This document shows positions 3,281 to 49,460 of a stretch of 64,000 nt of DNA, in pieces. The notes beneath the pieces are model-generated. The model searched no databases. It was not told where the DNA came from and saw nothing but the letters and a program-made list of their open reading frames with translations. The stretch is taken from IMG/VR virus record IMGVR_UViG_3300011008_000010, positions 32,001 to 96,000 of that record; one strand, 5' to 3'. A program made the translations under genes and the position numbers. This stretch comes from a virus. Taxonomy: Duplodnaviria > Caudoviricetes. Positions within the stretch are counted from its first letter, which is position 1. Every line of letters begins with the position of its first letter.

Positions 3281-3307
3281 TGCATATCACGGAATTGAAC
3301 CGCAATT

Positions 3308-3337
3308 AAAAGAGGCTCTCTTATGAGAGCCCCTTTT
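3308..3337 (-). terminator. intrinsic terminator (possibly bidirectional)
   Basis: AAAAGAGGCTCTC-TTAT-GAGAGCCCCTTTT just downstream of 3367..3792. Confidence 0.7.
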
Positions 3338-3366
3338 AAGCAACCTTGCTATGCAAATCGACGAGA

Positions 3367-3792
3367 TTAGATATTGACAATGCCTTTATATTCTTTCGGC
3401 ATGGTCTTGTGGATAACGTTTCCGCTGTTCTCAAGAGCTTTAATGCCTTCAGGCTTGACGATCGCCCAGCAACCATGACCTTTAAACCAGTACGCCTTAT
3501 AGTTCTTCTTGAGAATCTCACCGACGGTCTTATCATAACCGCCGCCGTTTAAAGCCACAAGAATGATTTTCTCACCGGTTTTAGTATGCTTTGCATACCA
3601 GGCAGAAACGCTTTTTTTCGTCGTTTTCGGCGTTGCAATCGGCGTTTCCGCCATTTGCTGCTGCTTCAAAGCCGTTTCGGCTTTTTCGCGGTTTAAGGCT
3701 TCGATCATGGTATTAAAAGCCTTGAGTTCAGCAGGGGTTAAGTCCATGAAACGATCGACGAGTTGAGAGAGAGTGATTTCCTGTTTTTTCAT
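3367..3792 (-). CDS. hypothetical protein (141 aa)
   Basis: CAACGAAAGGAAGG leader/RBS and a downstream terminator. Confidence 0.8.
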   Translation of the reverse strand: MKKQEITLSQLVDRFMDLTPAELKAFNTMIEALNREKAETALKQQQMAETPIATPKTTKKSVSAWYAKHTKTGEKIILVALNGGGYDKTVGEILKKNYKAYWFKGHGCWAIVKPEGIKALENSGNVIHKTMPKEYKGIVNI

Positions 3793-4934
3793 AATGCCAC
3801 CTTCCTTTCGTTGAGTGTATGAGTGTTAGAAGACCGCGCATCCGTATCGCGCTTGCTTCTCCGTATCCGCGTCCGGCGTCGCCACCGACCACTCATAGCA
3901 TGGCATCGATCACAAATCCTGTCAAATTCGAAAGTTTGTTTGGGACGCAAAAATTGCCCGCAAAGCCGCACGGGTACTACAAAAAAATTTTTTTCGATTG
4001 TGACAAATAACAATTTATTTCAGTCGATCGGGGGAAAAATTTTCCATGCCGGGGGGGTACGGAAAGCCCATAAAATCAACATTTTTTTGTCGGAGGCCCA
4101 ATCACTCACCTTCATACACAGACCAAAAAATACCAATCCAGTCACTCCCAAAATAATATACAAAACAAATGTTCTTTCTCCAAAAAACCTCCTCTCCCAC
4201 ACTCACATCCATCTAATAACTCATATAAAAAAAACAGAAACTATGTTCGATAAAATATCTTCCTGGAACCTCTCTTTTTCAAAACCTCAAACTGCGAAAT
4301 ATGTTCAAAATTACTACGATTTTTTCCAACCCCTTTTAACTATCATAAAATATTCATCAGTGACACATTTTTTATCGTTTTATGATTATCTCACAACTGT
4401 ATTAATTCCATCTTAACAATCCCAATAATTATATCCCGGCACATCCTAACGCTAATCCTTCCCTCACATTTAAACCATATGTTCGATATTTATAAAATTA
4501 TAAAGTTCTAAAAATACTCTAAACACCATTCCACCCGATTTTTTAACAATTATCTGCTTGCATATCTCGCCATTCTGGAGTATTCTATAAGCACATTAAT
4601 CCGCAGAGAGATAAATAAACTTCGGTTTGTCGAGAGCATATGAACAAATCATGAACAAAACCCCAGAAATCCATCAACAGGAACCTTTGAAAATCATTTA
4701 AAAACAAATCAAATTTAAATATTTTTATTTAAAACAGGATGTTTTTTGATAAAACGAAACAAAAACAATTCAAAACCAAAAACAATTAAAATAATTGTCA
4801 GACAACTAATTAATTTAACCAAATCTCGGCTAATGCACAATAAAAAAAATAACAGAAACGTGTCAAGGTAAAAATAGATAAACCAAACACCAGGCAACCA
4901 TCAACCATCATCAAGTTCAAAAAGGGGGAATCTC

Positions 4935-9891: not shown

Positions 9892-9962
9892 TGGGCGTTA
9901 GTTCAGCAGTAGAACGGAAGTCTTATAAACTTCTAAGAGGTGTGCAACTCACCTACGCCCGA
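9892..9962 (+). tRNA. tRNA-Ile (anticodon TAT)
   Basis: acceptor TGGGCGT/ACGCCCG, D-arm GTTC/GAAC, anticodon arm GAAGT-CTTATAA-ACTTC, T-arm AGGTG-TGCAACT-CACCT; no encoded CCA. Confidence 0.8.
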
Positions 9963-10019
9963 TGCGCTCATACTACTACCCTAACTGGTTTTATGAGTTT
10001 CCTTGGATCCGAGGTGGTT

Positions 10020-10090
10020 TGCGTGGTAGCTCAGTTGGCTAGAGAGCACGATATATCGTGAGGTCGCAGGTTCGAGTCCTGCCCATGCTA
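10020..10090 (+). tRNA. tRNA-like element/pseudo-tRNA with collapsed anticodon loop
   Basis: TAGCTCAGTTGG D-region and canonical GCAGG-TTCGAGT-CCTGC T-arm, but the anticodon arm is CACGA-TATA-TCGTG (4-nt loop). Confidence 0.65.
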
Positions 10091-10375
10091 TTTAAATATT
10101 TCATGTTTCGTGGCCGTGCGGTACGGTCAGGAGAATGCATAATAAGGGAATTCCTCACACCTTTCTTTTTCCCCGCGTTCCCGCATAATATACCGCAAAT
10201 GTGCGCATCGGTATTTTGGGTGTTATATCACGTAGGCTCGCGATAAGAGCATGGTAAACGCGCACATGGCGAAATCTGTGAAATTCAGAGCTTCGGATGC
10301 TTATTCTCCTCTTTTAAACCGAAACCGTTAAAGCCGGGGTTATGGAAATTTTATAAAGAGATATATAATTCTTCG

Positions 10376-11027: not shown

Positions 11028-13757
11028 ATGGCTCTGTCAACACAGTATTTCTCCTATTCCGTATCGACCGGAGACTTCGACACGCCGGAAGAACGGGAAT
11101 TATACAACAAGATGATGTTGAATAAAAGGAGAAATAAGGGATTAGCGGATATAAAGGACCGGATGATCAAAGAAGGTCGTGCGGTACGAGGATTTAAAGG
11201 GAATAAAAAAGACAAAGAAGAACTTAAGCGGGCTGTCATTGAAAAGTACAAGGCAGTTGCAAAAGAACGAAGTTTTTCAAAACGCGCCGCAGAATACAAA
11301 GAAATGTATTCAGAGGCGTTAAAGGCGTGTACAGAAGTAAGATCTCTTTCTCCCGGTTCAATCTGTGAATATAATCAAATTTCTTTGTTTGAATCAATTC
11401 TTTCAAAGACTCTTGGGATTAAACCTAATGAAACAACAATGGATCTGATTACGGTTCAGGTATATTTCTATACAACAATGGAACAACTTATCAAGAGAGG
11501 TTTTACTTTAAACGGTGAAAAATACCAATACTATACTTCTTCTGCTGCTGCGATTCGTTTGAAAAAGGGTATGTTTATTAAGTCTTCAACTTATGAAAAA
11601 CATAAAATGGCTTTGACTTGTGGCATGCCGGTTGAAGAGATTAATAAACGTGCCCAGATTAACGCCACAAAGTTTTTGGCTTATACTGCTCTTCCGTCTT
11701 CTGCCGTTGATATCTGGCCTACGGATTTTGTTGAAGCTTTAAGGATGGGAATGGGTTCTTTTAATATCCGCAGATGCATTGTTGTTCCGGATTATGAAGT
11801 AACGGTCAGAGGCGTTGTCGATCATCTTGACAACGAAACTTATGCAATCACCCGTCAGGAGATGGATGTTGCTTTTGACAGAGTGGACGGATGTGGGATG
11901 GTTTTGCCCAGAGTGAGTGATAAGAATTTTGTTTTTCGTGCGCCTTGGATGAAGGGGCTTCTTTGCAGTTTTGATTTTTTGAGGTTCATTGAAGAGAACT
12001 ACGCTTCTCCGAAGATTGTTGATTATTGGGGAAAAGAATGGGACGTCATAGAGGATGATATTGAAGTTATCTTTACGGACTCTATGCTGAAGCTTGCAAA
12101 ATGTTACAAGAGCTGGGACGAGTATTGTACAAATTTTGAAAAGTATGGTTGTCTTGCCGGTATTGCAAATATGGAAGGTCCGAAACCGTTAAAGGCCAGA
12201 TATAATTATCAGTATCTGCAATCTCTTACTGATATGACAGATGATGAGATTCGGATTTTGACCATGCAGTCTAATACGACGCTTAGAGAGTTGTCGAGCG
12301 ATAAAGAAACGATGCTTCGTGTTCTTGGTGCGACAGATTATAATATGAACCGGACTCCTTGGCAGAACGCGTTGGCTTTGTATCCGGAACTGTTAAAGGA
12401 TGAATATGCAAAGAAAAAATTGAGAGACGCGAAAAACAGTTTGGTTAAGAAATTTAAAAGCGCAAAGCTTGAATCCAGAGGGTTTTTTACTTTTGTCATT
12501 CCGGATCTTTATGCGTTTTGCGAACATTTGTTCCTTGGAGAAGAAACGCCAAAGGGATTATTACATGCGAACCAATGTTCGTGTAGGCTGCTCTCTCACT
12601 CTGACGAATTGGTTGCTATGAGAAGTCCTGCTCTATATAGAGAACAGGTATTGTTAAAAAATATTTACAGAGACGATCCGAGAATACAGGATTATTTTGA
12701 TACGGACGCAATCTATATTTCCAATCATGATATGTTGGCCAGAGTGGTTCAATTAGATTATGATGGAGACAGGCTTATGGTAACTGCCGATCCAACATTT
12801 AGAGAGGTCGTAAAGCGCAATTGGAGAAACGATGATGTGGTTCCTCTGTATTTTGATTTAAAACACGCAGAGGGCGTCGAATTGAATTCTGAAAACATAT
12901 GGATTGCTTTACAGAGGGCATTTCAGGCAAATAAGATTGGAGTTTATGCGAATCTTATTACTAAAGCATGGAACAGCGCAGAGGATTGGCTTAGTATGTC
13001 TTCTGAAGACAGGCAATTAATTTTAGACGTGGTAAAGTATTTGACACTTGAAGAAAATATCAATATTGACAGTGCAAAGTCCGGATATAATATGACCAGA
13101 ACAAGCGAGGTTGATAAAAAAATAAAAGACTGTATCGGAGGCAAGAAGGTTCCGTATTTCTTTAAATATGCAAAAGACAGGGCTGACGAACAGGTTGAGG
13201 AGTGGAATGCCAGCGTTATCAATCGTATCGGATCTGCAATCATTAACCCTCGTATTAAGTTTACGGCTGAAAATCTTGGGAAATTAGATTGGCGTGTGTT
13301 GGTGAGTAATCCGAACATACGTGTAGAAAATGATGTGGTGAACGTATATTCGAATGCGGTTAGAGGGTCTCATATCAGACTAACTCCACCCAAGTCCGAT
13401 TATGGTAACGCCGAAACTAATTATTATGCTGCTATCAAAAATTTACAGGACGAGATCAAAGAAAGTCTTCCGGAATATTCCTGGCAGGACATATGCGATA
13501 TGGTATTCAAGTATTTATATTACATTCGCAAGAATGTTGTTCGAAAAGATTTTGCCTGGGCTGTATTTGGGGACGTAATCGTAGAAAACATCCGAAAGAA
13601 AGTGCCGAAGGAGTCTGTACAGTGCGAGGTTTGCGGTACAAGATTTATTCCACAGACGGCGAGCTCTCATCAAAAGTATTGCGAGCATTGTGCAAGGGAT
13701 GTTCGACGCGCAAAAAACAGGGAATACAAGAGAAAAATGAGGGCTAAACTTTTGTAG
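11028..13757 (+). CDS. YonO-like single-subunit double-psi-barrel RNA polymerase
   Basis: DGCGM, RAPWMKGLL, MRSP and catalytic DYDGD motifs; C-terminal CxxC..CxxC; ATG 11028 follows GAGGT (track start 10896 probably too long); lies upstream of the virion genes as in SPbeta. Confidence 0.85.
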   Translation: MALSTQYFSYSVSTGDFDTPEERELYNKMMLNKRRNKGLADIKDRMIKEGRAVRGFKGNKKDKEELKRAVIEKYKAVAKERSFSKRAAEYKEMYSEALKACTEVRSLSPGSICEYNQISLFESILSKTLGIKPNETTMDLITVQVYFYTTMEQLIKRGFTLNGEKYQYYTSSAAAIRLKKGMFIKSSTYEKHKMALTCGMPVEEINKRAQINATKFLAYTALPSSAVDIWPTDFVEALRMGMGSFNIRRCIVVPDYEVTVRGVVDHLDNETYAITRQEMDVAFDRVDGCGMVLPRVSDKNFVFRAPWMKGLLCSFDFLRFIEENYASPKIVDYWGKEWDVIEDDIEVIFTDSMLKLAKCYKSWDEYCTNFEKYGCLAGIANMEGPKPLKARYNYQYLQSLTDMTDDEIRILTMQSNTTLRELSSDKETMLRVLGATDYNMNRTPWQNALALYPELLKDEYAKKKLRDAKNSLVKKFKSAKLESRGFFTFVIPDLYAFCEHLFLGEETPKGLLHANQCSCRLLSHSDELVAMRSPALYREQVLLKNIYRDDPRIQDYFDTDAIYISNHDMLARVVQLDYDGDRLMVTADPTFREVVKRNWRNDDVVPLYFDLKHAEGVELNSENIWIALQRAFQANKIGVYANLITKAWNSAEDWLSMSSEDRQLILDVVKYLTLEENINIDSAKSGYNMTRTSEVDKKIKDCIGGKKVPYFFKYAKDRADEQVEEWNASVINRIGSAIINPRIKFTAENLGKLDWRVLVSNPNIRVENDVVNVYSNAVRGSHIRLTPPKSDYGNAETNYYAAIKNLQDEIKESLPEYSWQDICDMVFKYLYYIRKNVVRKDFAWAVFGDVIVENIRKKVPKESVQCEVCGTRFIPQTASSHQKYCEHCARDVRRAKNREYKRKMRAKLL

Positions 13758-13987: not shown

Positions 13988-15457
13988 ATGGCGGTATTAA
14001 TCACGGAAGAAGGGGCGAGAAAAACTCGGAAAACAACTACAAGTGAAAAAGATGTTTACCGATGTTTTTATTGCGATAAAAAGCAACACAAAACTGCTTT
14101 TTATAAACACGAGGTTCATTACAACAAGGCAAGTATTACTCCTATTTGCAAAAAATGTGCAAATGAAATTGCTAACAGGGTTGAATATGGCATATCTCAG
14201 GGCATGACTATGGAAAGCATGCTATTCGCACTCAGGCTTATGGATAAACCGTTTATACGTTCGGTATTTGAAGATGCGGATATGGCAGCTAAAGACCCAA
14301 ATATGGACGCACGACATACAAGAACCACTTTTGGAAACTATATGGCAATTTTGGCAAGGACCAGATATGCAAATGGAACGTGGGATGATACGGAAGCTCG
14401 TACAGTCAGAGATCTCGAAGAGGTTAGAGAAGGTTTCAACGCAAATAAAAATCTCCCTCAAGCGGAATTAGATGAAATAACTGCTGAGATGGATATTAAC
14501 AGAGCAGATTGTATTAGATTAATTGGATACGATCCGTTTGCCAATGAGTCTGAAGAAGACAAACCATTGCTTTATGCGCAGATGATTAAGTATCTTGACT
14601 CCTCTCCGGAATCTAACGAAGACGCCATGAAGGTATCTTCTATCATTCAGATTGTAAAAGCATATCATCAGGCAGGTAAAATTGATGACGTTATTTCTAA
14701 AATCACATCCGATCCTGGTAAATTATTGGATAATGCCGGTACGTTAAAAAATCTTCATGCAACACAGAAGACTTTAATGGATACGGCGTTATCTTTAGCT
14801 AAAGATAATGGGATTTCATTTGCTCACAACACAAATAATTCAAAAGGTGCAAATACATTATCCGGCAAATTGAAGAAAATGAAAGAACTTGATCTTAGAG
14901 AGATTGAAGTAAATGGTTTTGATATCGGTACGGCAGCCGGTATCAAGATGGTTTCAGATATTTCCACTGCTTCCATCCTTGATCAGATAAGAATTAATGA
15001 GAATGACATTCCCGAAATGATCGCAGATCAAAGAGTTTTGATTGAAAAATGGGAGCGCGTTGCTTATAAAGCTTCTGAACAAGCCAGGATTCTTTTAAGA
15101 GAAAACCAAGACCTGAAAGAATATTTACGTTCGATTGGAAAAGAAGATGTTGTAAAGAACAGGGCGTTTCTTCTTGATGACGAAGGAGGAGTAAACGATC
15201 CGGATATTTACGAAAACGAATTCCAACAGTCGATGCGTGAAAATGACCAGGGAGATATTTGGACATTAGAAGAAGATGAAAATGCTGAAGAAGTATTGGG
15301 ACAAGACAGGATTGATGTTGAGTTTATTGAGGAAGATGTTGATGAAGACGATGACTTCGAAGTAGACCCGGAAGACATCGATGATCAAAATGAGGAGGGG
15401 CAGGATGCCGGATCCGAAGAAAATATCGGAACAGAAAAGTCCGGTGTTGATTCCTAA
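13988..15457 (+). CDS. zinc-finger protein upstream of terL, probable terminase small subunit
   Basis: CxxC...FY...PICKKC motif, acidic tail, overlaps terL. Confidence 0.55.
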   Translation: MAVLITEEGARKTRKTTTSEKDVYRCFYCDKKQHKTAFYKHEVHYNKASITPICKKCANEIANRVEYGISQGMTMESMLFALRLMDKPFIRSVFEDADMAAKDPNMDARHTRTTFGNYMAILARTRYANGTWDDTEARTVRDLEEVREGFNANKNLPQAELDEITAEMDINRADCIRLIGYDPFANESEEDKPLLYAQMIKYLDSSPESNEDAMKVSSIIQIVKAYHQAGKIDDVISKITSDPGKLLDNAGTLKNLHATQKTLMDTALSLAKDNGISFAHNTNNSKGANTLSGKLKKMKELDLREIEVNGFDIGTAAGIKMVSDISTASILDQIRINENDIPEMIADQRVLIEKWERVAYKASEQARILLRENQDLKEYLRSIGKEDVVKNRAFLLDDEGGVNDPDIYENEFQQSMRENDQGDIWTLEEDENAEEVLGQDRIDVEFIEEDVDEDDDFEVDPEDIDDQNEEGQDAGSEENIGTEKSGVDS

Positions 15458-34499: not shown

Positions 34500-37400
34500 A
34501 TGGCCAGTAATCAAGTAGAAAAAGTATTTAAATTCAGGGTTGATGTAGAGAATCCCTCGCAACAGTTTAAAAAGCTGTCACAAGAGGTTAAAAAACAAGT
34601 CGAACTATCAGCCACAGAAATAAAGATTCGCCCTGATGAAAATACAATTCCTGCTATCGCAAAAATACTTAGAGAAATTGAAGATAAGACAGGAATTACA
34701 ATTGACGTTGAAGCAAATTTGCAAAACGTTGAAAATCAGATTGCGAATTTAAAGAAACAGCTCAAAGATTTGAAATCTCCTTCTGAAATTGTTCCTAATA
34801 TGCGCAATATAGACAAGACGAATTATCTTAACGATCTTGCCAAAGACGCAAAGACGGCGAAGAAGGATGTTGAAGAACTTGGCAAAAAAGCGGAAGAAGC
34901 ATTTGCATCATTTGAGAGAAATAAAAATCGTAGAACTTATAGCGAATCATACAAAGAAGATTTGAAGAAGTTTCAGGAAGAATTTGTTCTTGAAACGAAA
35001 CTGTCTGATGTAAGAGATAAAGCTTTAGAGCAATTACAGGCTATTTCCAGTACGCCTGGTTGGGCTAACGAAGCTACAGAAGTGGCCAAGGTCATTGAAC
35101 TATTAAAGCAAGTTCAGTTGATTAACGAGAGAATCGTTGAACAACGGAAGAAAATGACTGAAGATCAGAAGCAGTTTTATAATGATAACGGTGTCACTAC
35201 AAATACAAAGATGCCTTCTGGTATAGATGCCAGTGCCGTATCTAAAAAGGTCGAACAAATTGCCAAAAGTTCCGATGGTCTTGTCGCATCTATTCAGGAG
35301 AATTTAAAGTCTCTACAAGCTGAAAAGAGAATGTTGGATGATCTTACAAAGTCCATGCAGGAATTTACAGCAGCGACAGATCAATCTGTTCAGACCGGTG
35401 GCAAAGGTGGTAGTGATACCGGGCTTGAGATATCTCCTACCGGATCAATTGATATCAGAGCGAATGCAAAGATTGAAATAACAGGACATGATGTAACGGT
35501 TATTCCGGAAAGTCCTGTTACTATTACCGGATCTAATGTCAGCATCGATATTGAAGCCGGTGCGTTCAATGGATTGAAAACTAAATCTTTGCAGAACGCA
35601 ATCGATATGATCAAGCAGATTGACGCTGCTATTAAGAACCATCAGACAATGACTCCTGAGATTAAAGAGGGGTCGTTAAAAATCGAGAGCGTAATACCTA
35701 AGAAGGTCAGCACGCTTACTATACCGGTTAAATTAGGTAAGTTGTCAGCAGAGAAGGTTAATAATTTTGTTGCAACTGCAAGTACAGAAGTTGCCGGTAT
35801 GGGAGCTGCCGTATTGATGAATACGGGGCTTAGAGATATAGCAAAAAAGGAAATTAATCGAGTAATTTCCGATACTAATAAAAAGGCAAAAACCGCTACA
35901 ACCAAGGTTAAGTTGGAAGCAGAACTTGTACTTGGCAAAGGAACGAGTGAAAAGGTTTCTGGAATTGAAGAAAAGGTCGGCTCTCTAACCGAGTCATTTG
36001 CTAATCTTCCAAGTACAATAACCGGTTCTGCCACAGAGAGTGTTCGTGCACTTGAAGAACTTAGAAAAATTATCGCCGATATTGACGAGAAGGTAAAAGA
36101 TATATCTAATGTCAAAATTACGCTTAGACATACCTCTCAGAAAGATGGCGGTAGTAGTAGTAGAAGTTCTTCTGGTAGTGGCACATCTTCTATTTCTGGC
36201 GGTCAGATGTCGAAGTTGTCTTCTTATGTAAAAGGAGTTTCAATTCCTAATACATCGGAACTTGATATAAAAGAATTAAGGCTTATATATCTTGAGCTCA
36301 TGAAGATATACGGACTTGCTGAAAAGATTCCGAAGGCAATGTTCGGCGAAGGCGAGAACTATATTAATTTTTCGAAAGAGCGTCTTGTTGCAGAAATAGA
36401 GGCTCTTCAACAGAGAGATGCTGTTCTAAAGGAAGAACAGAAAGTCGAAAAGGCGGTAAATGATTATCTCAAAAAGCAGATTTCGCTTCGTAACGAATTA
36501 GGAAAGAAGCAACAGGATCTTCGAGAGAAAATGGCCGAGATGTATAACGGCCTTTTCTATGGAGATGAGAATGCTAGAGACAGTCTAAACAATCTGCTTG
36601 AATCAATTGATCTCGATAAAATGATGTCGGATGGGAATCTTGACGTTGCCAAGAAAGTTCTTGGCGATGTTGCTTCTATTGTAAAGGAGATCCAGGATTC
36701 TAACAAAAAAGGTGCCACGGAAGCCAATAAAGCCCTCGAAGAAGCCGTCGAGAAAAGCAAACAGCAGCTTGAACTTGCCAAGCAGAGACGCGAACTCGAA
36801 GAAAAGATAACAAACATGAAGTCTGCGGTAGGATCTAATGACGATGAGTTCTATTCGAAGACCATAAACGAAATAGAGTCCGCGTTTAAGAAAATTGACG
36901 ATCACGGTCTTGCCGATAACATTGGCATCGAAAAGAGTAAACTTGATGAGATTAGTGAAGGATATAAGAATGTCACTAATATGATTAATTCTGCTTATGA
37001 CGCAGAGTTAAAAAGAGAAAAGGCGGCAGATGAGTCCTTTAAATTCCAACAGCAAATAATCAATCAACAAAATAATCTTCTAAAAGAAAAAGCAGAGCTT
37101 GAGCAGAAAATCCAGAAGATGTATGAGGATGGAATTGTTCGGGCAGAGAAGCTAAGAGACGTTGAAGAAGAACTTGCTAAGATTGATATTTCAAGCCCTT
37201 ATGATACTAATGGCAAAGCAAATCCTCTTGGCGGGGATGTTTTAAATAATTATGGGCAATCGCTTGACAACATAAGAAAGAATCTCGTAAATCTTGAAGC
37301 GCAAGAAAAGAAGGAGCTTGATGGCAGAAAGAAATTAGCCGGTTTCCTGCTAAACGAAAAAGAACTTCGTGAAAAGATTGCAGAGTTAAGAACTTATGGC

Positions 37401-40400
37401 AGTACGGATAAAGAACAGCTTGATAAGTTAGAGCAAGAGCTGAATACTTTTAATCTTGATAAGCTTGCAGAAAAAGCAGAGGCTCCTGCCAGAAAAGCAA
37501 TTGACGAGATTACTGTCGGACTTGGCAAGGTTAGAAAAGAACTTTTTGAAATTGAAAAAGCTACTATCAAACCGGCCAGTGCCTTAAAAGATCTTGGTAA
37601 GAAACTAAGAAGTTTTACCGGAACGCAAGAATGGCGCGACACATCTGATGCAAATATTGGCCTTAATTATATTGGATCAGAAGAGCAGCTTGCCAAAATA
37701 AGAGCTGCACGTCAGGAAATTGCACAGCTTGTTGAAACTGTCGGCAATATCAGCAAAGAATTCACCAAAGAAGAAGCCGAGAAGTTTACAAAGCAATATG
37801 AGAATGCAATCAGTAAGTTTGAAAATGCCGTAAGAAATGTTCAGAGAAAGACGGCTAAGAGCGGGAATGTTACTGTTCTTGGTACGGACACGTTGCATCA
37901 AGTTCAGGAAGTTGAAGATGCTATTAAACGCATTAATGAAATAGGTGCAAATGCTAATATTCAATGGACCACAAAAACAACCGGCGACATTACAAGGCTT
38001 ACCGGTGTTCTTACTGAAAATGATGGTACGGTAAAGACTCTTGTATATGATTACAATAATCTTACTACAGAGTTGTCTGAAGTAAGCGTCACAGAAAAGC
38101 AAACTGAAACATTTATGCAGCGCATAACAAAGTTGCTTCGCCAGAGAAGCGATGCTTTGATTGCGTACATTGGTACGTTCGCAAGTTTCTATCAAGTTAT
38201 GGGGAAACTTCGTGAAGGTGCTACTATTATCAAACAATTAGATACAAACATGACGGAGCTTCGTCGTGTTAGCGGTGCGACCAGAGGAGAATTGGAAGCT
38301 TTTAAGAGCACCGTTTTTGATATCGGTAGAGAAATTGGTTCTGCCGGAGATACAATTATAAAGCTTGCAGCAGATTATGCAAGACTTGGTTATTCATTAA
38401 GTGAAGCAAGCGAACTCGCTAAAGCATCTGCAATGTATATGAATGTAGGTTTTATTGATGATGCGACTTTTGCTATGGAAAGTTTAACATCGACGATGAA
38501 AGCTTACGGGATGCAAGCGAGTGAAGTTGCAGATATTGTTGATTAGAGTCGTTATCATATTGAAATAGATAACGATATATAGTTAGTCTATAGAGAAATC
38601 CGTAGATAGCGCGTTAAACGCCAACAAAGAAACTGAATTGCTGGGATACCGTAAAACTAATAGAACTACAACATAGGGATGAAACAAACTCAAGTGTGAA
38701 TGTGGCGAAAGCAGAAAAAATCTATTAGATGGCACATGGTTAAATCCTAAATGCTTCTACAAGAAATTGGTAATCAGCAGCCAAGCTCCGAACAGGAGAA
38801 GGTTCAACGACTATCCCTCGTGAGGGGAGTACACGCAAGCGCGTGGAAGTGGTTTCGCCTAAACGTATCGTAAGGTACGCATGGATAAGATATAGTCTGT
38901 GCCTTACTGAAAGGTAAGGAAGTTCATAAGAGAACTGCATGAGAAGTAGCGAGCTTATGTGAACGACGCCTCTAAAACGGCTAAAGTTGTGTGGTAATTA
39001 ACAAGTGGTTGTTACCGCTATGCATATGTAAAATTTTTAATATGTTTTTTTGCTTGACTTATTAGGGATAAATGCAGCATAATATTTATCGTGTAGTGGA
39101 TATATAATTTATTTATAGGTTTTGCGCATATGATTAAATCATATAGATTTAGACTTTATCCCAATAAAAGTCAAAGAGAACTTATGGCTCAAACATTTGG
39201 TAATTGCAGATTTGTCTATAATTATTATTTGGATAAAAGAATAAAATACTATGAAGAAACCAAAGAAACGTTTGGGTTTTATCAATGTTGCAAAGATTTA
39301 ACAGAATTAAAGAAGAAGTATGAATGGCTTCAAATATCCGATAAATGGGCTTTGCAAAACACATTGAAAGATTTGGACTTTGCGTTTAAAAATTTCTTTA
39401 GAAATAATGGTTATGGATATCCTCGGTTTAAATCAAAGAAAACACATAGATATTCTTATAAAACTACTTTTACAAATAATAATATAAAATGGTCGAAATC
39501 TGCAATTAGACTCCCAAAATTAGGTTGGGTTAAAGTAAGAGACAAACAAATACCACAAGGCAGAATTCTTAATGCTACGGTAAAACATGAACCATCTGGA
39601 AAATATTATTGTTGTATTTGTTGTACGGATGTTGAAATATCTCAACTTCCAAAAACGGGTTTAAACATTGGAATGGATTTAGGCCTTAAAGAATTTGCAG
39701 TTACCAATGACGGAACGAAGATAAATAATCCTAAGCACCTAGATAAGTCACTAAAGAAGCTTGTTAAATTGCAGCGAGAACTAGACCGAAAGACAAGGAA
39801 TAGCAATCGTTGGAATAAGCAAAGAATTAAAGTGGCTAGAATGTACGAGCGGATTACGAATCAAAGAAAAGATTTCTTGCAAAAATTATCCACGCAGATA
39901 ATATCAGACTATGACATTGTATGTCTTGAAAAATTAGACATACAAGAAATGATTGAACGTGCTGATTTTTCAAGAAGTATATTTGACGTATCATGGAACA
40001 TGTTTGTTCGAATGCTCGGATATAAAGCCGAATGGTACGGTAAAAAGGTGGTTAGGGTTGATAGATGGTACGCCAGTTCGCAAATTTGTTCGTGTTGTGG
40101 GCATGTTTACAAAAAGACAAAAAGTTTGTTAGTTCGGGAATGGACGTGTCTTAAATGTAAAACTCATCACGACAGAGATGTGAACGCTGCAAAAAACATA
40201 TTAAAAGAAGGGCTTCGAATAGCCTAATGTATGTATAGCGGTAGGAACTACCGTGTTAGCTCGTGGAGAAAGTAGGTAACGAAATCTGTGAAACGAGAAT
40301 CCGCAACTTTAGTTGTGTGAGGTTCAGAAGTTTAATGAAGTGGGTAAATTGTTGCCCTTGAATGGCTATATCGGTCAAAGGGTGGGGACACCAGAGACCG

Positions 40401-43400
40401 AGCAAAGACTTAATATATTGCCGAAATGTGCTTAAAGAAAATGCGTTGAGGATAAACAATATGTTATGGATGCGTAACGACTGCGATATGGTATGTGGCA
40501 ACACATATTGTTAAGCCTATCCATGCGTAATAAGCTATCGCATGTAATATACAGTCTGAACTACCGCTATAATCCAAATAATTATGAAACGGTAGAGTAA
40601 GGCCGAAAGACCTTGCCGCCACAGAAATGTGGTCATAAAAGCAACAGTTAAATTTGAACAATTTTGCAATTAGCTCTGAAGGCATCGGTGAAGCCTTACA
40701 GAGATCTGCTGCTGCGCTTGCACAAGCAAACAATGATTTAGACAAGAGCATCGCTCTTGTTGTGGCTGCTAATGACGTTGTGCAGAATCCTGAAACAGTT
40801 GGTACTGCACTGCGCACGGTGGCTCTTCGCATAAGGGGTAACACATGTTATTTTATTTTGTGCCCATCCAGAGAGAAATCCTGGTCTGCGTTGCGAATAA
40901 TAAATTACGCAGCATGATCGCTATATCGGTCAAAGGGATAACGGTATCCAGAGACCGACGTAACCCATAGTGGGGTACGCTACAGACTGCCAGATCTATA
41001 TGGCAACATATAGGTTTAAGCGATCTCGCTCTCCTATTCTGGAAACGATGATATACAGTCGGAACTCACGCTATAACCGTAATTAATGAAACGTGAGAGA
41101 TAGCCAGAAATGACTATCCGCCCGCAAGGGTCAGTAGCTTTAATCCAGGCGAAAGTAACAGAGTGGCAAAAGCGGATTTAGAAGAGTTAGGTGAAGACAC
41201 GGATGGATTAGCTAGCTCTGTATCGTCTTTAAGAGCAGAGGTTCTGGCACTTTCTGGTGTTGACATCATGATTGATGACAACACATTTAAAGATACTTAC
41301 AACATTCTAAAAGAACTTGCCTACGTATGGCATGATTTGACGGATGTTTCCCAAGCAGCTCTCTTAGAAAAGCTTGGTGGCAAACGTGGTGCTAACGTAA
41401 TCGCATCTATCCTTAGTAATGTAAACGATCTTGAGGCGGCTTATGCAGCCGCTGCTAATGCTGCCGGTTCTGCATCGGCAGAAAATTTAAAGTATCTAGA
41501 AAGTATCGAAGGTAAATTATCTCAACTCTCTGCTTCCTGGCAGGAGTTTTGGGATTCTTCATTTTTAAACAGCGTATTTAAAACCGGAATAAATTTATTA
41601 AATGGATTTGTTCAGATCTTAAATGATGCTGGCGGCATAGATTTTGCCATCACGCTCGCTGGCGTTGTTGGTTTGACACAGGCTATTAAACGGCTTGGTG
41701 GTTTTACCGGCAAGATAACAGAATTATATAACTCCTTTAAAGATTTCAGGGCGCTCATGAAAGATAATAATCTGAATTGGGCCGGTCTTTTTAAAGGGAG
41801 TTTCGTCAACGAGAAAGATATTAAAAAGAATGTAGAAAAAGTTGTTGGCAGTGCTTTCTCAACATACAATCAGGTATTTAATGCCGGTGGTGGTACTCAG
41901 GAAGCTGCTGCAAAAGCAAGTAGTGCGGCTTTAGCAGATCTCGTAAAAAATCAGGATCTATTGGCAAAATCATCCAGCGATTTAACTAAGTCTATGATTG
42001 AACGGGCTGCTCAAGAAGGTACGAACATAACGCTTGAACAGCAAGAAGCGAAGACAGTAGAAGTTCTGAACAATGAACTTGAGACTGGCGGAAAGAACAG
42101 TGCTCAATTTGCTAAAGGTCAAGCGGCAATGAAGAGTGCTATTGCTGCTATTGCTGTTATTGGCGTTTCTCTTGCCATTAATGCTATCAGCGCCTACATT
42201 CGAAAACAGGACGAATTAAGAGAGAAAATTATTGAGAACGGTAAAACGCAAGTAAAGCAAGCACGTAGTTTGCGTGATGCCGTTAATAGTTTTGATAAGA
42301 TCAATGCCGACTATAAGACCGGTGCGGCGACATCAGACGAATTAAGAAATGCTATTGAAGGCGTAAACGAAGCTCTCGGAGATCAAAAAGAATTATTAGC
42401 CGGTGTTTCGTCTGGCAGTGATACTTGGAGAAAGCGTCTCGATGAATTAATCGAGAAACAGAATGAGGTTGCTAAGAACGCGGCTCGTTCTGCGTTGTAC
42501 AATGCATCTAAGAAAAGTGCGACAGATACGGTCAAAGGTATTGGCTGGAGCATTGCCAAATACTGGACTTCTTCTTGGGGAGGTATGTTGCCGATTGGCA
42601 ACCTCCTTAAAGACGTAAATCCGATCTCTAAATTTTTTGGAAATAAGAAGGATCTTACCAATCGATCTTCTCAAATTAAGGCATTAAAGGAATGGCAGGA
42701 TGAGTTAAAAGAACTCGAAGAAGAATATAAAGAACTTGAAAAAGCCCAAGAAGAGGCTATGTCGGAAAATAATGGTGCTGCACTAAAGACCAATCCGATA
42801 AAGGTTCTTCTTGGTTGGCAAACGGATTATGCGAAAGAACTTGATAAGAATCAGAAGAAACAAGACGAGTTAATCAAGAATATTGCTCAATATAATGATT
42901 CTGTTCAAGAGACGGCTCAGGCAGCAGCATATCTTGTTTGGGAAGACAGTATTAAAGATATAGATAATGCGGCTGACAAATACAAAAAATTAGATAAAGC
43001 CGTAGAGGATGTAATTAGGACATTTGGACTTGCCGATGACGAAGAAGGCATCAAAGCCGCCAAAGAAATGATTCTGAGTTTCATGGAAATGGATTCGGAA
43101 TCTGCTGGGTTTATGGCTCTTAAAAAGGGAGCCGAGGATGCATCTAAAGCAATTGGTGCTGCAAGCGTTTCCGTAGAAGGACTGTTAGAAGCGTTTGATA
43201 AAGGAGATCTGACCGAACAAGACATTTTTGATCTTAGCGATGAAAGATTTAAGAATTATGTAGAGCAGAACCAACTTTATATTAAGAGTGTAGAGCAAGC
43301 TATCGAAACGCTTCATGCTTGGAAAGATGAAGTCAGAGCCGAGGCGAAAGAAACCAATACGCTTGTTGGTGTTATTAGGGACTCTAAAGATGCCATAGAT

Positions 43401-46400
43401 GATTTCCAGTCTGCTATATCGAAACTTGGTGCTATAATGAAAGCCGATTATTCGAATAACGCTTCTGGTATGATCGATGATCTGCAAGATCTAATCGACG
43501 TTATCAGTGGGATGGATACCAAAGTATCCGAGCAATTATTCGATAAGTTAAATAGTGCGTATAGCGTAGAAGCTCTTTCGTCTGCAATGAAGAAGGCCTC
43601 CGAAGAGGCAATGAAATTTAAATTAGATGGCTTAATTGATTCGTTAAATCTTGCAAATCCTGCATTGGAAAAGATGCTTCGTCTTCTTGTTGAACAGGAA
43701 AAACAAGTAGAAGCAATTACATCTGATTTAGATTCGTTTAAATCTGCTTATCAGAACCTTATTGGGGTGGTAAAAGAATACAATGAAAACGGATTTTTAA
43801 CGGCGGATAATATTAACACCATTCTGTCGATGAGTCCGGAGTATTTGGCTGCTCTTGATTATGAAGGTAATAAGCTAAAGTTAAATGAAGAAGCGTTAAA
43901 GAAAATTGTCCTTGTTCGATTGGAAGAAGCAAAGAGGCAAATTGAGTCTAATAGACATACTCAATTGTCTGCAATATATGCAGAACAAGAAGCGAGGGCA
44001 AAGCAAAAGTCTGCCGAATTAACATATGAACATGCGACAGCATTGTTACAAGAAGCAATTGCAGCAGGAAAATCTGAAACAGAAATACTGAAACTTGAGA
44101 AGCAAGTTTATAAACTGTATGAAGCACAACAAAAATTACAGGGTGTAGAGTTTTCGGGTACGCTAGATTCAGATTTGCAAGAGCAAGCAGATGCAGTAAA
44201 TGAAACTGCCGATGCTGCGATTGATAGTATTGATCATGTCATAGACGAGTTTGAAAACGGATCTATGGATGCGCTCAATACATTTCTCGGTGTTACAGAT
44301 GACATTGAAAAAGATGCCGAGGATGCCGCAGAAGAACTTAAATCTCAGATAGACTCCGTTCTTTCTAAGTGGAAATCTGCGCTGGATTCCGGTGCGATTA
44401 ACTATAAGCAATATCTGGACAAAATGAAGTCCATGCGCAATCAGTATGCAGATCAGTTAAATACCGAAGATTTGCTGCAAATGGATGTAGATATTGCCCA
44501 GGAAGAACAGAATATGTGGAAGGAGGCTATGGACGCTGCCGGTAGATATATTGACCGGGAGATGAAGAAGCCTATTGAAGATCGTATCACCGCATTAAAT
44601 TCTGAGAAAGATGCATTAGAAAGAAATAAGGATGCCATCAGTGATTACTATGATGGTATCATTGATGGTTTTGAGAAACAAAAGGAAGCTGTTGAAAATC
44701 AGATTGACGCTGTTGAGAAAGCGTATGAAGCTCAGATTAAGCCTCTTGAGAATCAGCAGAAGGCAATCAATAAGCAAATTAAGGCTATTGAAAAGCAGAA
44801 GCAAGTTATTGAGGATGAGATAAAGGTTCTTGAAAGATCTAAACGGCCTTATGAAAAACAACAAAAGGCTATTGATAAAGAAATTAAAGCGATTGAGCGT
44901 GAAATTTCTGTTATTGAAAAATCCAAGAAACCTTATGAGCAGAAACAAAAGGCATTAGAAAAGGAAATCAAGGCAATTGAAAAGCAGATTGATATCCTTG
45001 AACGCTCCAAGCGTCCTTATGAAGATCAACAGAAGGCGATAAACAAGGAAATCAAGGCGATTGAAAAAGAGATCAACGCTCTTGAAAAGACTAAAAAGCC
45101 TTATGAGAAGCAACAGAAGGCTATTGCAAAGCAAGTTAAGGCAATACAACGGCAGATCGATGCGCTTGAAGATACAAAACGTCCTTACGAAGATCAGCAA
45201 AAGGCAATTGACAAGCAAGTCAAGGCAATTAATAAACAGATTAAGGCTTTAGAGAAATCCAAAAAGCCTTATGAAGATCAGCAAAAGGCTATTGACAAGC
45301 AATCAAAGGCAATTCAGAAGCAGATAAATGCTTTGGAAAAGTCTAAAAAGCCCTACGAAGATCAACAGAAGGCGATAAGCAAAGAAATCAAGTCTATCGA
45401 AAAGCAGATTAAGGCGATACAGGATACTGAAAAGCCCTATAAAGAAGAACAAGAATCAATCGAGAAGTCTATTCGTGCGATTGAGCAGAAAATTAAAGCG
45501 TTTGAAAAACTGCAACAGCCATATAAAGAACAGCTTGATCTTGTTAATAAGGAAGTTGCCGCTCTTGAGAGAGAAATTGAACTTATGGAGCGGTCAAAAC
45601 GATCTTATGAACAACGACGTGATGCAGTTCAAAATGAAATTGATGCTCTGGAATATCAGATGTCTGTTATTGGCAGACAGGAAACTGCGTATAAGCGCGA
45701 ACAAGACGCTCTGAATAAAGACATTGAACTTCTTGAGCGCCAGGTTTCTATCCTTGAATATAGGAAGAAGCCTTATGAAATTGCACAAAGACAAATTGAA
45801 AGACAGATTGGTCTTTTGCAGCAAGAGCAGAAAGAACTTGAGAAATTAAAAGAGCCTTACGAAGAAGAGATTAAAGCCTTAGAGAAAGAGCTTGAGGCTA
45901 TGCAGGAAGCCAATGAAGAACGGCAAGCTGCACTTGATCTTCAACAGGCAGAATATAATCTCAGGAGAGCACAGCAGCAAAGAACCAATTATGTTTATCA
46001 GGATGGACAGTTCCAGTATATTGCAGATCAGACAGCTATTAAAGATGCTCAAAAGACGATAGATGATCTCAAATACGAGGAATCTGTAAAACGCGTTGAA
46101 AAGGCAATTGATAGGTTACAGGATAAGATTGACGAGATTACCGCTCAGAGCGATGCTATCCAAAAAGATATCGATGAACTGACAGATAAAAACGATCAAC
46201 TTGCCGAAAGCATTCAGCGCATACAGGATGAAATAGATCCTATTCAGGACGATATAGATGAGCTGACGTTTAAAGCAGAAGAATTACAGTGGTCTATAAA
46301 TGACATTGAGTATTCGATGACAAGTATCCAGTATGCCATCGAAGACTTAGAGGCTGCAAACGAAGATTTGGAAGAATCAATCCGACAGATTGACGAAGCT

Positions 46401-49400
46401 ATTCAGCCTTTACAGTATAGGCTTGATTCATTAAAAGATACTGCTTCTGACTTGCAATGGGAAATCGACAAGATACAGCAATACATCGATCCGTTAAATA
46501 CAGAGATCGAAGGGTTGAATGATACGATTTCTGAACTTCAGCTTATTATTGATGAAATCGAAGAATCAATTGATCCGCTTAATGAAAAGATCGACGAGCT
46601 GAATGAGCACAATGATTTATTACAGGAATCTATCGATGCTATAACAGACGCGATTGAACCGTTAAACGAACAAATTGACGAGTTAGCGGAACAGTCAGAT
46701 TTAATACAGGAAAAGATTGACGAAATTAATGATGCGATTGATCCTCTTAATGATCAGATTGATGATCTGAATGAACAAGGGGATGAATTGCAAGAAATGA
46801 TCGATTCTATCGGCGAATCTATTGATGAGCTAAGTCGTCAAATAGATGATCTGAATAGGCAGAGCGATTTTATACAGGATATTATCGATGAAATCGATGA
46901 GGCTATTGAGCCTCTCGAAGAACATTTAGACGAACTGAATGAAAAGAGCGAAGAGCTTCAAGAGCAAATAGATGCAATTGATGAAGCAATCGAACCTTTG
47001 CAGAGAACAATCGACGAGTTAAACGATCAGATTAGTGATTTGCAGGATGTTATCGATGCTATCGATGAATCTATGGAGCCGCTTCAGGAAAGAATCGAAG
47101 CACTTAATGAAGAGAGCGAAGAACTTCAGCAGACTATCGATGAAATCGATGAGGCCATTGAAGAACTGAACTATCAGCTCGAACCGTTAAACGACGAGAT
47201 TGATCTTCTTAACAGGCAGAACGATGAACTTAGCGAATCAATAGAAGAACTCAGAGAACAACAGGAGTTGGAAGTTGAAGCGTTACAGGCTCAGAGCGAC
47301 GCTATAAGCGAACAGATTGATTATTATCAGCAGTTAAAAGAACAGGCAGAAGAATCGATCCAGGCTCAGATAGATAAAATCGATGAACATATCGATGCGT
47401 TGGATAAGGAAATCGAAGGTATCGAAGCATATAAAGATCAGCTCACGAGCATCTTTGATGAAATTGATGCAAGAAAAGACGAAGATCTTCTTACTACGTT
47501 ATTCGGTGAAGGATGGCAAGAGAAACTACAATCATTAGATCCTCAGATTATAGCTGATTTTGCTGCTGGATATGAAGATTCTACGGAAAGATTAAAGGAA
47601 GCGAATCAGGTAGTCATTGATTCGTTAGAAGGACCAGATGGTCTTGGACAGGCAGCGGAAGAAACCGAACAAGACGTGTCTGAATTAAAAGATACGATGG
47701 CCAATGCCGATGAAGCAATAGGCGAAGGATCGATTAAGGATGCTATGGATCAGACTGCTGTATCTGCTGAAGATATGGCAGAAAGTTTTGTTAAAGTTAG
47801 AGACAACATTGACGAAGTAATTGATGCTATTGGAAGGCTTTGGGAACAGCGTGGGACTTTTAATGAAATTGGAGGCATGATAGATGTCTACCTGATTCAA
47901 AAGTTCCATGAAACCAAAGAAGCTATTGATCCTACTTTAATTGATACAATTGGTTTGCTGTGGGATGCCGTTCGTGTCAACAGCGTGATGATTGGCGATG
48001 CCATCGAGAATAACATATTAGGTGCTCTAAAGGATATTGAGGAATTCTTGAATAAGAATATTCCCGAAGCATCTGATTATGCAAAACAAGAGGTGATCAA
48101 AGATATTGAAGAGATCGTCTCTTTTATGACTGATCGTGCGCAGCCTGGTTTATTAACTGCAATCGATACGATCAAAGAAGAGGCAATCAACGCTTCCGAT
48201 GAAATTGTTCGTGAAGTTGAAGACGATATAGATCAGATCGTTAGTTATGCGGAAGATCCTGGTAAAGCACAGCTTGTTGCTACGGCAGAGCAGACAAGGA
48301 TTGATATTTCTGAGATTTCAGATGATCTTGTGGATGATATCGAAGATGATGTTAGAGAAATCTGTGAGGTTATTGTTCCTAATGGTCTTAGAGAATGCGA
48401 AAAAGAGATACAAGATTCCGTTGATAATGTAATTATTCCTAAATTAAGGGATATAAAAGACGAGATCGACGAAATTGTTAGTGCTGCTTTAGAAGCAATG
48501 CAAACTGTTTCTGAAATGGGTATGACAATTGCCAATGCAATTAATGAGGTTGCACAAAATATTAGCAATGTTATTAGTGGTATTGAGGAATCAATTAATA
48601 ATACCTATGAAAATCTCACAAAAGAAGGCGGTCTAATACAAAAGCTACATGAGGCGGCAGAAGCTGCTGCTCAGATCCCTGGATATGGTGTTGCTCAACC
48701 AGATCAAACTCAGGATGATGGCGGTGGCGGTGATCAGAATAACAATTATGATAATAACAACGGTGGTGGTGACAATAATTATGATGTTCAGTCTGCCGAA
48801 GTTCAAACAGATCAGTTTGTTGTTCAGAATGCCAATATTGAAATGACAACATCTGAAGGTAAGCGAGATGGATATCAAACTTACCGGATGGGCGAAAAGA
48901 GCATTTCTTATCAAAGATATAAGACCGAGGCTGGAAAAGAAGAAATTGAAAAATGGAGAGCGCAAGGTTACGACATCAGAGTAACATCTGGAGTTGGTGG
49001 TCGAACACTCTTCACTGTTGATCGCTATGGCAAAGGTGGGTATGTTGCAACTGAAAAGTTAAAGACGCCACTTACCAATTTGGCCAATGCTGTTGGCGAA
49101 GATAAGATGGTCGCCGTACAAGAAGGCGAACGCATCCTTACTCCTACTCAAAATAGGGATTTTGAAGAATTTGTCAGATTAACACCTGAGTTAATTAGTG
49201 CAACTGAAAGTCTTGCAAAATATGCAAAATTATTCGAAGACATTTCCACTATGGATTCGATGGCGTCAGAAGCAGGCATGATGCGTGGTGTCAATGGTGT
49301 TGTGGACAGAGCAAATGCTGCTCCTGTTACGAATAATACTATGTCGCTTAATATCGGTGATATCCATGTGCATGAAGCTAAGAATGCTGACGACCTTGCA

Positions 49401-49460
49401 AGACAGATTAAGAACAATTTGCCTAACTCTTTGATTCAGGCGTTAGGTAGAGCAAGTTAA
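34500..49460 (+). CDS. tail tape measure protein, spliced: join(34500..38543,40328..40345,40657..40839,41166..49460), 4179 aa
   Basis: the TMP core (LDTNMTELRRVS...ADYARLGYSL...DIVD-KFNEVG-NNFAISSEGIGEALQRS...RIRG-AKADLEELGED...LLEKLGGKR) is contiguous only when three inserts are removed; each insert follows a U and ends in G. Confidence 0.9.
39054..39083 (+). promoter_or_regulatory. possible internal promoter for tnpB
   Basis: TTGACT-18 nt-CATAAT. Confidence 0.4.
39130..40227 (+). CDS. tnpB: RNA-guided endonuclease TnpB (IS200/IS605 family)
   Basis: YRFRLYPN N-terminus, RuvC-I GMDLGL, RuvC-II CLEKL, zinc finger CSCCG..CLKC, RuvC-III DRDVNAAKNI; catalytic D/E/D all present. Confidence 0.95.
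   Translation: MIKSYRFRLYPNKSQRELMAQTFGNCRFVYNYYLDKRIKYYEETKETFGFYQCCKDLTELKKKYEWLQISDKWALQNTLKDLDFAFKNFFRNNGYGYPRFKSKKTHRYSYKTTFTNNNIKWSKSAIRLPKLGWVKVRDKQIPQGRILNATVKHEPSGKYYCCICCTDVEISQLPKTGLNIGMDLGLKEFAVTNDGTKINNPKHLDKSLKKLVKLQRELDRKTRNSNRWNKQRIKVARMYERITNQRKDFLQKLSTQIISDYDIVCLEKLDIQEMIERADFSRSIFDVSWNMFVRMLGYKAEWYGKKVVRVDRWYASSQICSCCGHVYKKTKSLLVREWTCLKCKTHHDRDVNAAKNILKEGLRIA
40238..40327 (+). ncRNA. omegaRNA scaffold/IS605 right end (5' boundary approximate)
   Basis: CGGTAG-GAA-CTACCG hairpin, GCTCGTGGA...GAAACGAGAATCC, subterminal hairpin, terminal TTCAG. Confidence 0.8.
40346..40656 (+). ncRNA. group I intron 2 of the tape measure gene (311 nt, no ORF)
   Basis: P1 GGGU|AA/UUGCCC with U-G at the splice site; AAAUUGUU pairs with 3' exon AACAAUUU (P10); P7 GACTG 40479/CAGTC 40552; terminal G. 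Confidence 0.88.
40840..41165 (+). ncRNA. group I intron 3 of the tape measure gene (326 nt, no ORF)
   Basis: P1 GGGU/GCCC; UUUUGU pairs with 3' exon GCAAAA; P7 GACTG 40985/CAGTC 41056; terminal G; core similar to intron 2. Confidence 0.88.

Follow-up and report, generated by a model that had tools for sequence, protein, structure and literature searches.

Whether a phage structural gene whose reading frame is broken several times over is still one gene is the question raised by positions 34500 to 49460 of a 64,000-nt viral DNA stretch (Duplodnaviria; Caudoviricetes), referred to here as the window, which covers positions 32,001 to 96,000 of IMG/VR record IMGVR_UViG_3300011008_000010. The source record is one 137,795-bp SPbeta/Sundance-like virus contig, 77% complete by the CheckV estimate. 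Open reading frame (ORF) calling gives three separate ORFs on the plus strand of this region, at 34500 to 38546 (1348 amino acids [aa]), 39130 to 40227 (365 aa), and 41163 to 49460 (2765 aa), as reported in a first-pass annotation, which assigned them to a tape measure protein (TMP) gene split by three group I introns. We conclude that the region is very probably one TMP gene carrying three self-splicing group I introns, the first of which is an IStron, that is, a group I ribozyme combined with an IS605-type TnpB, and that splicing would yield a 4179-aa TMP.

Excision of 38544 to 40327, 40346 to 40656, and 40840 to 41165, as the first-pass annotation had proposed, joined 34500 to 38543, 40328 to 40345, 40657 to 40839, and 41166 to 49460 into a 12,540-nt frame that encodes 4179 aa with zero internal stops. 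All 5' exons end in T, or U in the RNA (positions 38543, 40345, and 40839), and all introns end in G (40327, 40656, and 41165). Exons 2 and 3, of 18 and 183 nt, together place only 201 nt of exon between the three introns, and exon 2 is a micro-exon encoding KFNEVG. The TMP core was likewise found to be intact, as the spliced translation aligned by BLASTP with the uninterrupted 2528-aa TMP of Brevibacillus phage Sundance (391 residues aligned, 37% identity, E = 5e-70) with no gap at any of the three junctions: IVDKFNEVGNNFAISSEGIGEAL in the spliced product aligns with IVDMFNEVGNNFAVSSEGIGEAL in the Sundance TMP across junctions 1 and 2, and RIRGAK with RLRGVD across junction 3. Exon 4 aligned with the Sundance TMP immediately past RIRG and also has coiled-coil-type Pfam matches. 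In the PF10145 profile, the last 74 residues of exon 1 cover positions 7 to 80 and exon 3 covers positions 87 to 145, so that the six positions between them (81 to 86) are exactly the length of the micro-exon; because each exon contains part of this domain, the single exons fall below the Pfam cutoff. One predicted junction peptide of the spliced TMP is FNEVGNNFAISSEGIGEALQR.

A megablast search of the region against the phage collection returned no match, and relatives sought with the exon 1 tail among viral contigs and with TnpB among genome contigs were not confirmed. Metagenomic relatives were obtained by a protein search with the exon 1 tail (57 to 71% identity); the contigs of three were fetched, and the spliced protein was mapped onto them. 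The site of intron 1 is empty in L003 and L004/L005 (the L numbers are our handles for loci), where the DNA runs GTTGAT^AAGTTTAATGA(A/G)GTGGGT uninterrupted (a caret marks an insertion point or intron boundary), and both ends of intron 1 are thereby fixed to the base. The same site is read through at the protein level in L006, and exon 1 is contiguous with the micro-exon in L003, L004, and L006. The 18 nt that follow TTGAT match the micro-exon perfectly in L004 and with one mismatch in L003. Site 2 holds an intron with the same start, AAATTGTTGCCC, in every close relative (L003, L004, and L006), and the copy in L004 contains a 306-aa ORF with a DUF2726 domain. Homologues of the site 3 intron were found in L003 and L004; it is absent from L006, where RIRG^AKSEMEELGED is contiguous. 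Exon 3 shares 85 to 89% identity with the same exon in L003 and L004. Since relatives have exact empty sites and, as described below, the intron structure covaries, the split-gene observation is well beyond chance.

The relatives also bear on the alternative that the gene is truly split, with one protein made from the 1348-aa ORF and another from the 2765-aa ORF, the middle pieces being unexpressed debris and the mobile DNA never being removed from RNA. Gene callers and deposited annotations do give such TMPs as two or three coding sequences (CDSs), both in Thomasclavelia phage TR-TP1 and in the gene calls of L003 to L006, and the ORF at 41163 to 49460 starts with GTG. However, a true split would cut the PF10145 core into four pieces, and exon 3 and the six-codon exon have no start codon and yet are conserved at 85 to 100%. 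Besides, the split points differ from one close relative to the next, with the joined protein remaining colinear throughout, and the intervening RNAs have ribozyme structure with covariation. We thus consider separate proteins very improbable and retain the single, intron-containing gene, the features of which are collected in the table.

Two of these relatives deserve description in their own right. Positions 13908 to 15932 of L003 (ERZ27317956 k141_503217) hold the same TMP core with four introns, and a 21-nt micro-exon, GCAAAAGCTGAACTTGAGGAT (AKAELED), at 14668 to 14688 is flanked by the 760-nt site 3 intron and a 1244-nt fourth intron; within the latter is an ORF of 315 aa that has matches to CapR and to a treble-clef zinc finger. 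In the TR-TP1 locus (L002; PQ571309.1:23364-28534), two "tail length tape measure protein" CDSs are annotated around an "HNH endonuclease" CDS of the DUF2726 type, an arrangement that probably reflects one more TMP gene split by an intron and deposited as several genes.

Features of the TMP gene and its introns, in window coordinates (position 1 is the first letter of the 64,000-nt window)
Feature	Coordinates	Strand	Remarks
TMP exon 1	34500..38543	+	1348 codons; 3' end ATT GTT GAT
Intron 1, group A (CdISt1-type) IStron	38544..40327	+	1784 nt; after TTGAT, ends GGTTCAG
IStron group I ribozyme core, P1/P2 to P9, IA2-like	38569..38919	+	RF00028
Two nested long-range helices, 5' strands	38977..39028	+	38977-38991, 39012-39028
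Sigma-70-like promoter match	39054..39083	+	TTGACT, 18-nt spacer, CATAAT, upstream of tnpB
tnpB, IS200/IS605 ORF B	39130..40227	+	365 aa; Pfam HTH_OrfB_IS605, OrfB_IS605, Cas12f1-like_TNB
IStron right end, predicted omega-RNA scaffold	40150..40327	+	last G = omega-G
TMP exon 2 (micro-exon)	40328..40345	+	18 nt, KFNEVG
Intron 2, ORF-less, group IA-like	40346..40656	+	311 nt; conserved TMP site EVG^NNF
TMP exon 3	40657..40839	+	61 codons
Intron 3, ORF-less, group IA-like, P2 + P2.1	40840..41165	+	326 nt
TMP exon 4	41166..49460	+	2764 codons plus stop

All three intervening sequences showed group I anatomy at the boundaries given in the first-pass annotation. For intron 1, the ribozyme and its boundaries stood, and the assignment had to be extended, as this element is an IStron rather than a plain intron. 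Group A IStrons are defined by insertion 3' of TTGAT (or ATTAT/TTTAT), a TCAG terminus, and no target duplication (PMC4227781). The ends of intron 1 read GTTGAT^TAGAG on the 5' side and GGTTCAG^AAGTTT on the 3' side, and the empty site reads GTTGAT^AAGTTT, which places it in group A. Its ribozyme scored 65.9 bits against Rfam RF00028 (gathering score, 50) over model positions 1 to 253, and P7 and P3' are separated by two additional hairpins, a feature of subgroup IA2. The encoded TnpB aligned with ISDra2 TnpB (8BF8/8EXA) over residues 3 to 362 with E = 1e-94; GMDLG, CLEKL, and HDRDVN align with D191, E278, and D361 of the latter, so that the RuvC D-E-D triad is intact, and the zinc-finger cysteines (CxxC...CxxC) are kept. 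The candidate tnpB promoter is no more than a match to the consensus, and the whole region shows no enrichment of such matches relative to shuffles. No ORF lies between 38920 and 39130 within the IStron, and tnpA is absent; since many published group A copies lack ORF A, this implies a nonautonomous element and not a nonmember.

The 3' splice site of the IStron may be brought to the ribozyme core by long-range pairing. Positions 38977 to 38991 are complementary to 40302 to 40316 (15 bp) and positions 39012 to 39028 to 40228 to 40244 (17 bp), with G-U pairs counted, and by our own estimate about 0.01 such matches would be expected by chance. These nested helices flank tnpB and could loop it out. 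They overlap the local right-end hairpins of the IStron, and we infer that this overlap corresponds to the competition between folds known from IStrons. The right end itself is conserved with that of an IStron of a Clostridioides phage up to GAGGTTCAG, and similarity falls directly past the boundary. In this comparison, both right-end hairpins are compensated (CGGUAG/CUACCG versus CCGUAG/CUACGG in hairpin 1 and CAAC/GUUG versus UGAC/GUCA in hairpin 2). No Rfam family matched the right end, which may act as an omega-RNA scaffold, as the literature on IStrons suggests. Within the phage collection, Clostridioides phage ES-S-0173-01 has the closest element, an unannotated IStron with 77% identity in the ribozyme and 58.6% in TnpB, and its ends read CTTGAT^TAAAA on the 5' side and GGAGGTTCAG^AAGG on the 3' side. 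In the genome studied here, the IStron is a single copy.

An insertion of this size in a metagenomic contig might also be a repeat-mediated assembly join, with the IStron coming from the host or from another phage. The contig evidence is of low depth (3 to 6x) and from one sample, and contigs have loose ends at 38772 and 38816 to 38817; they branch there inside the P7 region of the IStron ribozyme, which indicates that other group I introns or IStrons with this core are present in the gut sample. On the other hand, the insertion is exact at TTGAT, with no exon bases lost or gained and the frame kept, and contigs spanning 38084 to 38819 and 40194 to 40383 bridge both ends of the IStron. A chimera would not recreate both transposon ends at a single empty site. 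Mapped onto the region, the contigs of the one DNA sample showed no intron-less joint. We regard an assembly chimera as exceedingly improbable and take the IStron to be a resident of this TMP gene.

An nhmmer comparison shows that intron 2 and intron 3 are related (E = 2e-8), and no further copies of either type were found in the 138-kb genome. The P1 and P10 pairings claimed for them were confirmed. In both, the exon GGGU pairs with GCCC in P1, with the U-G wobble at the splice site; P10 of intron 2 (8 bp) is formed by intron nt 1 to 8, AAAUUGUU, with the first 8 nt of exon 3, AACAAUUU, and P10 of intron 3 (6 bp) by UUUUGU with GCAAAA of exon 4. Across relatives, P1 covaries with the exon (GGGU/GCCC, AGGU/GCCU, UGGU/GCCA, and GGAU/GUCC), and the site 2 P10 tracks 3'-exon changes in L013 and L010, while P10 is weak in some relatives. 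Together with the covariation of the fold, these pairings support the exact splice sites and not only the fold.

In a model built by hand, introns 2 and 3 show P1, P10, P3, P4 (UCGGUC/GACCGA), P5 to P9, P9.1, P9.2, and omega-G in the canonical order. J4/5 is AAA, J5/4 is AGA, and J8/7 is UAAUAUA or UGAUAUA; P7 pairs C-bulge-GACUG with CAGUC-G, with C as the bulged nucleotide in intron 2 and A in intron 3. Only one hairpin, P7.1, separates P7 from P3', and its loop is GYAA; P9.1 and P9.2 are capped by GNRA loops. P2 and P2.1 are present in intron 3, and intron 2 has neither; P6 is the position of the ORFs carried by relatives. In eight introns from the window and close relatives, P1, P3, P4, P5, P7, P7.1, P8, P9, and P9.1 all occur in canonical order, and 96% of the pair cells are canonical. 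Compensatory changes, which fall in P3, P5, P7, P7.1, P8, and P9, were seen at 29 of 43 positions versus 4 to 10 with a slid partner strand, a control that is biased toward the model, since the model was derived from the same sequences. The P3 pseudoknot helix reads GAUCGC/GCGAUC, AACAAC/GUUGUU, AAUCGC/GCGAUU, and GUUGGC/GCCAAC in four of the introns, and the site 2 relatives support P8 (CAUGCG/CGCAUG, with compensatory changes) and P3' between P7.1 and P8. Folding z-scores against shuffles were -4.55 for intron 2 and -4.30 for intron 3, and the minimum free energy fold of intron 3 independently recovered P2, P2.1, P3 to P6, P7.1, and P9 to P9.2.

Two other ideas on these introns were dropped. 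A helix "Px" (CGAUA/UAUCG in intron 2 and CCAGA/UCUGG in intron 3) around the GCAA hairpin is not kept in the site 2 relatives. Group B IStrons have ..GGG on their 5' side, with the U belonging to the element, and terminate in CGG (PMC4227781); derivation of introns 2 and 3 from such elements by loss of the ORF was ruled out, since these introns terminate in UG and have a covarying P1 in which the U is paired with the guide G.

We further examined how widely this intron type occurs. A first intron pattern, TCGGTCAAAGGG...AGAGACCGA, gave no match in viral contigs. A 26-nt pattern from J8/7-P7-P9 matched 24 IMG/VR contigs (17 distinct) and one contig of a metagenome-assembled genome of Candidatus Absconditabacterales, and most copies lie within TMP cores. 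The site 2 intron precedes NNF(A/S)I in L010, L011, L013, L014, L025, and L030; in L012 the 5' side fits site 2 and the contig stops before the 3' exon. At least four further TMP-core positions are occupied by the same family or other introns, with three introns in L016, two in L020, and one each in L023, L026, and L028. Across the relatives, at least seven TMP-core sites are occupied, with up to four introns and micro-exons of 18 to 21 nt in one gene.

The conservation of the catalytic part was assessed with 25 members of this family. RNAalifold predicted P7.1, P9, and P9.1 unaided from the 3' halves, and with P7 added, 93.2% of the cells were paired versus 72.5% in shuffled alignments, none of 500 shuffles being as high; the covariation score was 0.56 versus 0.17, and slid controls paired at 23 to 38%. 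In the guanosine pocket of P7, the G-C pair is invariant in 24 of the 25, and next to the bulge, 12 members have A-U as the closing pair, 8 have G-C, and 3 have C-G, with zero one-sided changes.

Some members of the wider set stand apart. The three introns of L016 lie at 2286 to 2621, 2679 to 3069, and 3265 to 3744 in oriented coordinates, and its site 2 is empty. L010 is a 125-kb contig (JAZQNA010000029.1) whose TMP has the site 2 intron and, past it, a 3' exon reading AATAATTATGCC (NNYA); a phage contig or a prophage has probably been placed in the bin of a candidate phyla radiation bacterium. In L017 and L018, both from IMG/VR, family members occur outside TMP genes, with an HNH-like ORF (CE.CH...IH) between P7 and P7'. 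In L019, a different, Rfam-visible group I intron (RF00028, 71.9 bits) occupies 4194 to 4537 in the locus of a family member that Rfam missed.

Several observations, in addition to the biased control mentioned above, weigh against the conclusion that all three introns splice. RF00028 gave no match to introns 2 and 3 even at E ≤ 10, so that their assignment rests on the hand-built model and its covariation, and at permissive Rfam thresholds only chance-level matches to unrelated families appeared. We take the silence of RF00028 to reflect the limited reach of one model that draws mostly on other subgroups; among 15 related loci scanned at the gathering threshold, no family member scored either. 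P3 of intron 2 has just 4 to 5 good pairs. The site 2 intron of L003 ends AACAGCGCA^AAT (13700 to 13730), with no G at the omega-G position; either this copy is defective or its splice site lies 2 nt upstream, which would add a CAA codon; some members of the intron 2/3 family thus need not be functional. The DNA contigs that bridge the junctions all come from one animal-gut metagenome, possibly the source sample of the window itself, and for this reason are not independent confirmation of the assembly. Finally, a search found no RNA run that contains the sequence, and no spliced junction was seen.

These points give some weight to the possibility that the introns are genuine in origin but that at least one splices poorly, for example, as a decayed ribozyme needing a factor from the host or the phage, or that the IStron inactivated the TMP in a defective variant. 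The absence of ORFs from introns 2 and 3 would fit such decay, as would their lack of an RF00028 score, the weak P3 of intron 2, and the missing terminal G in L003. Besides, the 3' splice site of the IStron is 1.4 kb from the ribozyme core, and the omega-RNA fold, which according to published work competes with splicing, could reduce the yield. Nevertheless, the core helices and the G-binding pocket are kept with compensatory changes in 25 members, and the exons are in frame and highly conserved in every relative regardless of intron content. The IStron ribozyme is above the Rfam cutoff, the nested helices place its 3' end near the core, and IStrons of the same architecture have been reported to splice in experiments. 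Poor splicing or a defective TMP therefore appears unlikely, though less remote than either a true split or a chimera, and we favor a TMP gene in which all three introns are removed. It is a sound expectation, as in the first-pass annotation, that tail assembly depends on three splicing events.

Based on these features, the splicing pathway can be proposed as follows. Each ribozyme in the late TMP transcript would fold, and its internal guide would pair with the last four nt of the upstream exon through a U-G wobble. An external guanosine would then attack after the exon U, and the freed exon end would attack after the terminal G of the intron; three independent events of this kind would produce the 12,540-nt frame and the 4179-aa TMP. 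Introns 2 and 3 may have lost the homing endonuclease genes still carried by relatives and may persist as splicing-competent passengers. The micro-exon exists because the IStron inserted at a TTGAT located 18 nt upstream of the older, widely conserved site 2 intron.

The IStron combines its IA2 ribozyme with an intact tnpB and a right end of the IS605 type; lacking tnpA, it is nonautonomous for transposition. By analogy with studied IS605 elements and IStrons, the guide of TnpB would be transcribed from the sequence past the right end, that is, from the micro-exon; the predicted guide is the whole micro-exon plus the first bases of intron 2. TnpB might cut IStron-less TMP alleles (TTGAT followed by AAGTTTAATGAAGTGGGT) of coinfecting relatives, and recombinational repair would then copy the IStron into them. 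Self-cutting is not expected, because the target in its own genome is preceded by TTCAG and not by TTGAT. We tentatively suggest, as a possibility that falls somewhat short of an even chance, that the micro-exon has three roles, as the KFNEVG codons, the P1 strand of intron 2, and the TnpB guide, that the IStron is an RNA-guided homing intron, and that the mutually exclusive folds of its right end, with either the tnpB-looping helices or the omega-RNA hairpins formed, trade TMP yield against nuclease loading.

The CdISt1 IStron is reportedly the one described by Braun in 2000. Like CdISt1 and other group A elements, the IStron of the window has a 5' IA2 ribozyme and a downstream TnpB, follows TTGAT, ends in TCAG without a target duplication, and is about 1.8 kb long, whereas it differs from them in interrupting an essential virion gene, that of a large phage, and in having a second group I intron 18 nt downstream. 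Published group A IStrons follow TTGAT, ATTAT, or TTTAT, end in TCAG, measure 1.76 to 2.2 kb, and often have lost ORF A (Tourasse 2014, PMC4227781). It has been reported that TTGAT is the transposon-adjacent motif of Clostridioides difficile IStrons, that their omega-RNA spans the intron-exon junction, and that the omega-RNA fold competes with splicing (Zedaveinyte 2023, bioRxiv 10.1101/2023.11.20.567912). IStrons, some in Clostridium botulinum phages, and TnpB-driven retention and homing are established (PMC4227781; bioRxiv 10.1101/2023.11.20.567912). The TnpB of the window resembles that of ISDra2 (PDB 8EXA/8BF8/8H1J) in the triad, the zinc finger, and the TTGAT beside the element, and differs in being encoded within an intron.

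Several introns in one phage gene have also been described. In prophages of the Bacillus cereus group, TMP genes carry group I introns at three sites, TMP-IVS1, -IVS2, and -IVS3 (Tourasse and Kolsto 2008, PMC2504315), where similar introns were retargeted via P1/P10 and most are without homing genes (PMC2504315). The introns of the window are alike in the host gene, the number of sites (up to three), the IA class, the P1/P10 adaptation, the general lack of a homing endonuclease, and the location in the most conserved part of the gene; they differ in being crowded within 201 nt of exon and in including an IStron, and the site 2/3 family has a single P7.1 and is unscored by RF00028. This comparison is with the published description of the B. 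cereus introns. Orf142 of Staphylococcus phage Twort has three group I introns with exon skipping, according to PMC11878797, which cites Landthaler and Shub (1999), and polymerase and terminase genes of Bastillevirinae have two to three introns (PMC11878797). These systems share with the window several self-splicing group I introns in one phage gene whose expression needs multiple splicing events, but the host genes are others and no transposon-type intron is found there. Splicing in vivo has been reported for mycobacteriophage capsid and tail introns.

Thus, the parts of the present gene all belong to known kinds, and their arrangement alone is unusual. The first-pass annotation was right on the latter and somewhat overstated it, considering the three-site TMP genes of B. 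cereus prophages, Twort, and relatives with up to four introns. As far as we searched, the cited papers do not describe an IStron and two classical introns within 201 nt of exon, a micro-exon doubling as a predicted guide and a P1 strand, the density of intron sites in this TMP clade, or a TMP-core intron family that is invisible to the standard Rfam model.

This last family, unscored by the single Rfam model, interrupts the TMP core in many large phages, so that many TMP annotations given as split or duplicated are probably single intron-containing genes. Unrecognized introns would also cause the length of the TMP, which is used for predicting tail length, to be misread. The TMP core is an intron hot spot and offers a natural system for the retargeting of ribozymes via P1/P10. 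Furthermore, an essential late gene that harbors an IStron whose TnpB is intact provides a test of RNA-guided intron homing in coinfection, comparable to that of the T4 homing endonucleases.

The only other group I-like signal in the genome is a weak RF00028 candidate (14.5 bits, E = 0.02) on the minus strand at G000:C1:5898-6073, 26 kb before the start of the window. Two adjacent genes at 9892 to 9962 and 10019 to 10091 of the window were both scored as tRNA by Rfam; one is tRNA-Ile (TAT), and for the other ARAGORN reports a 2-base anticodon, "at."

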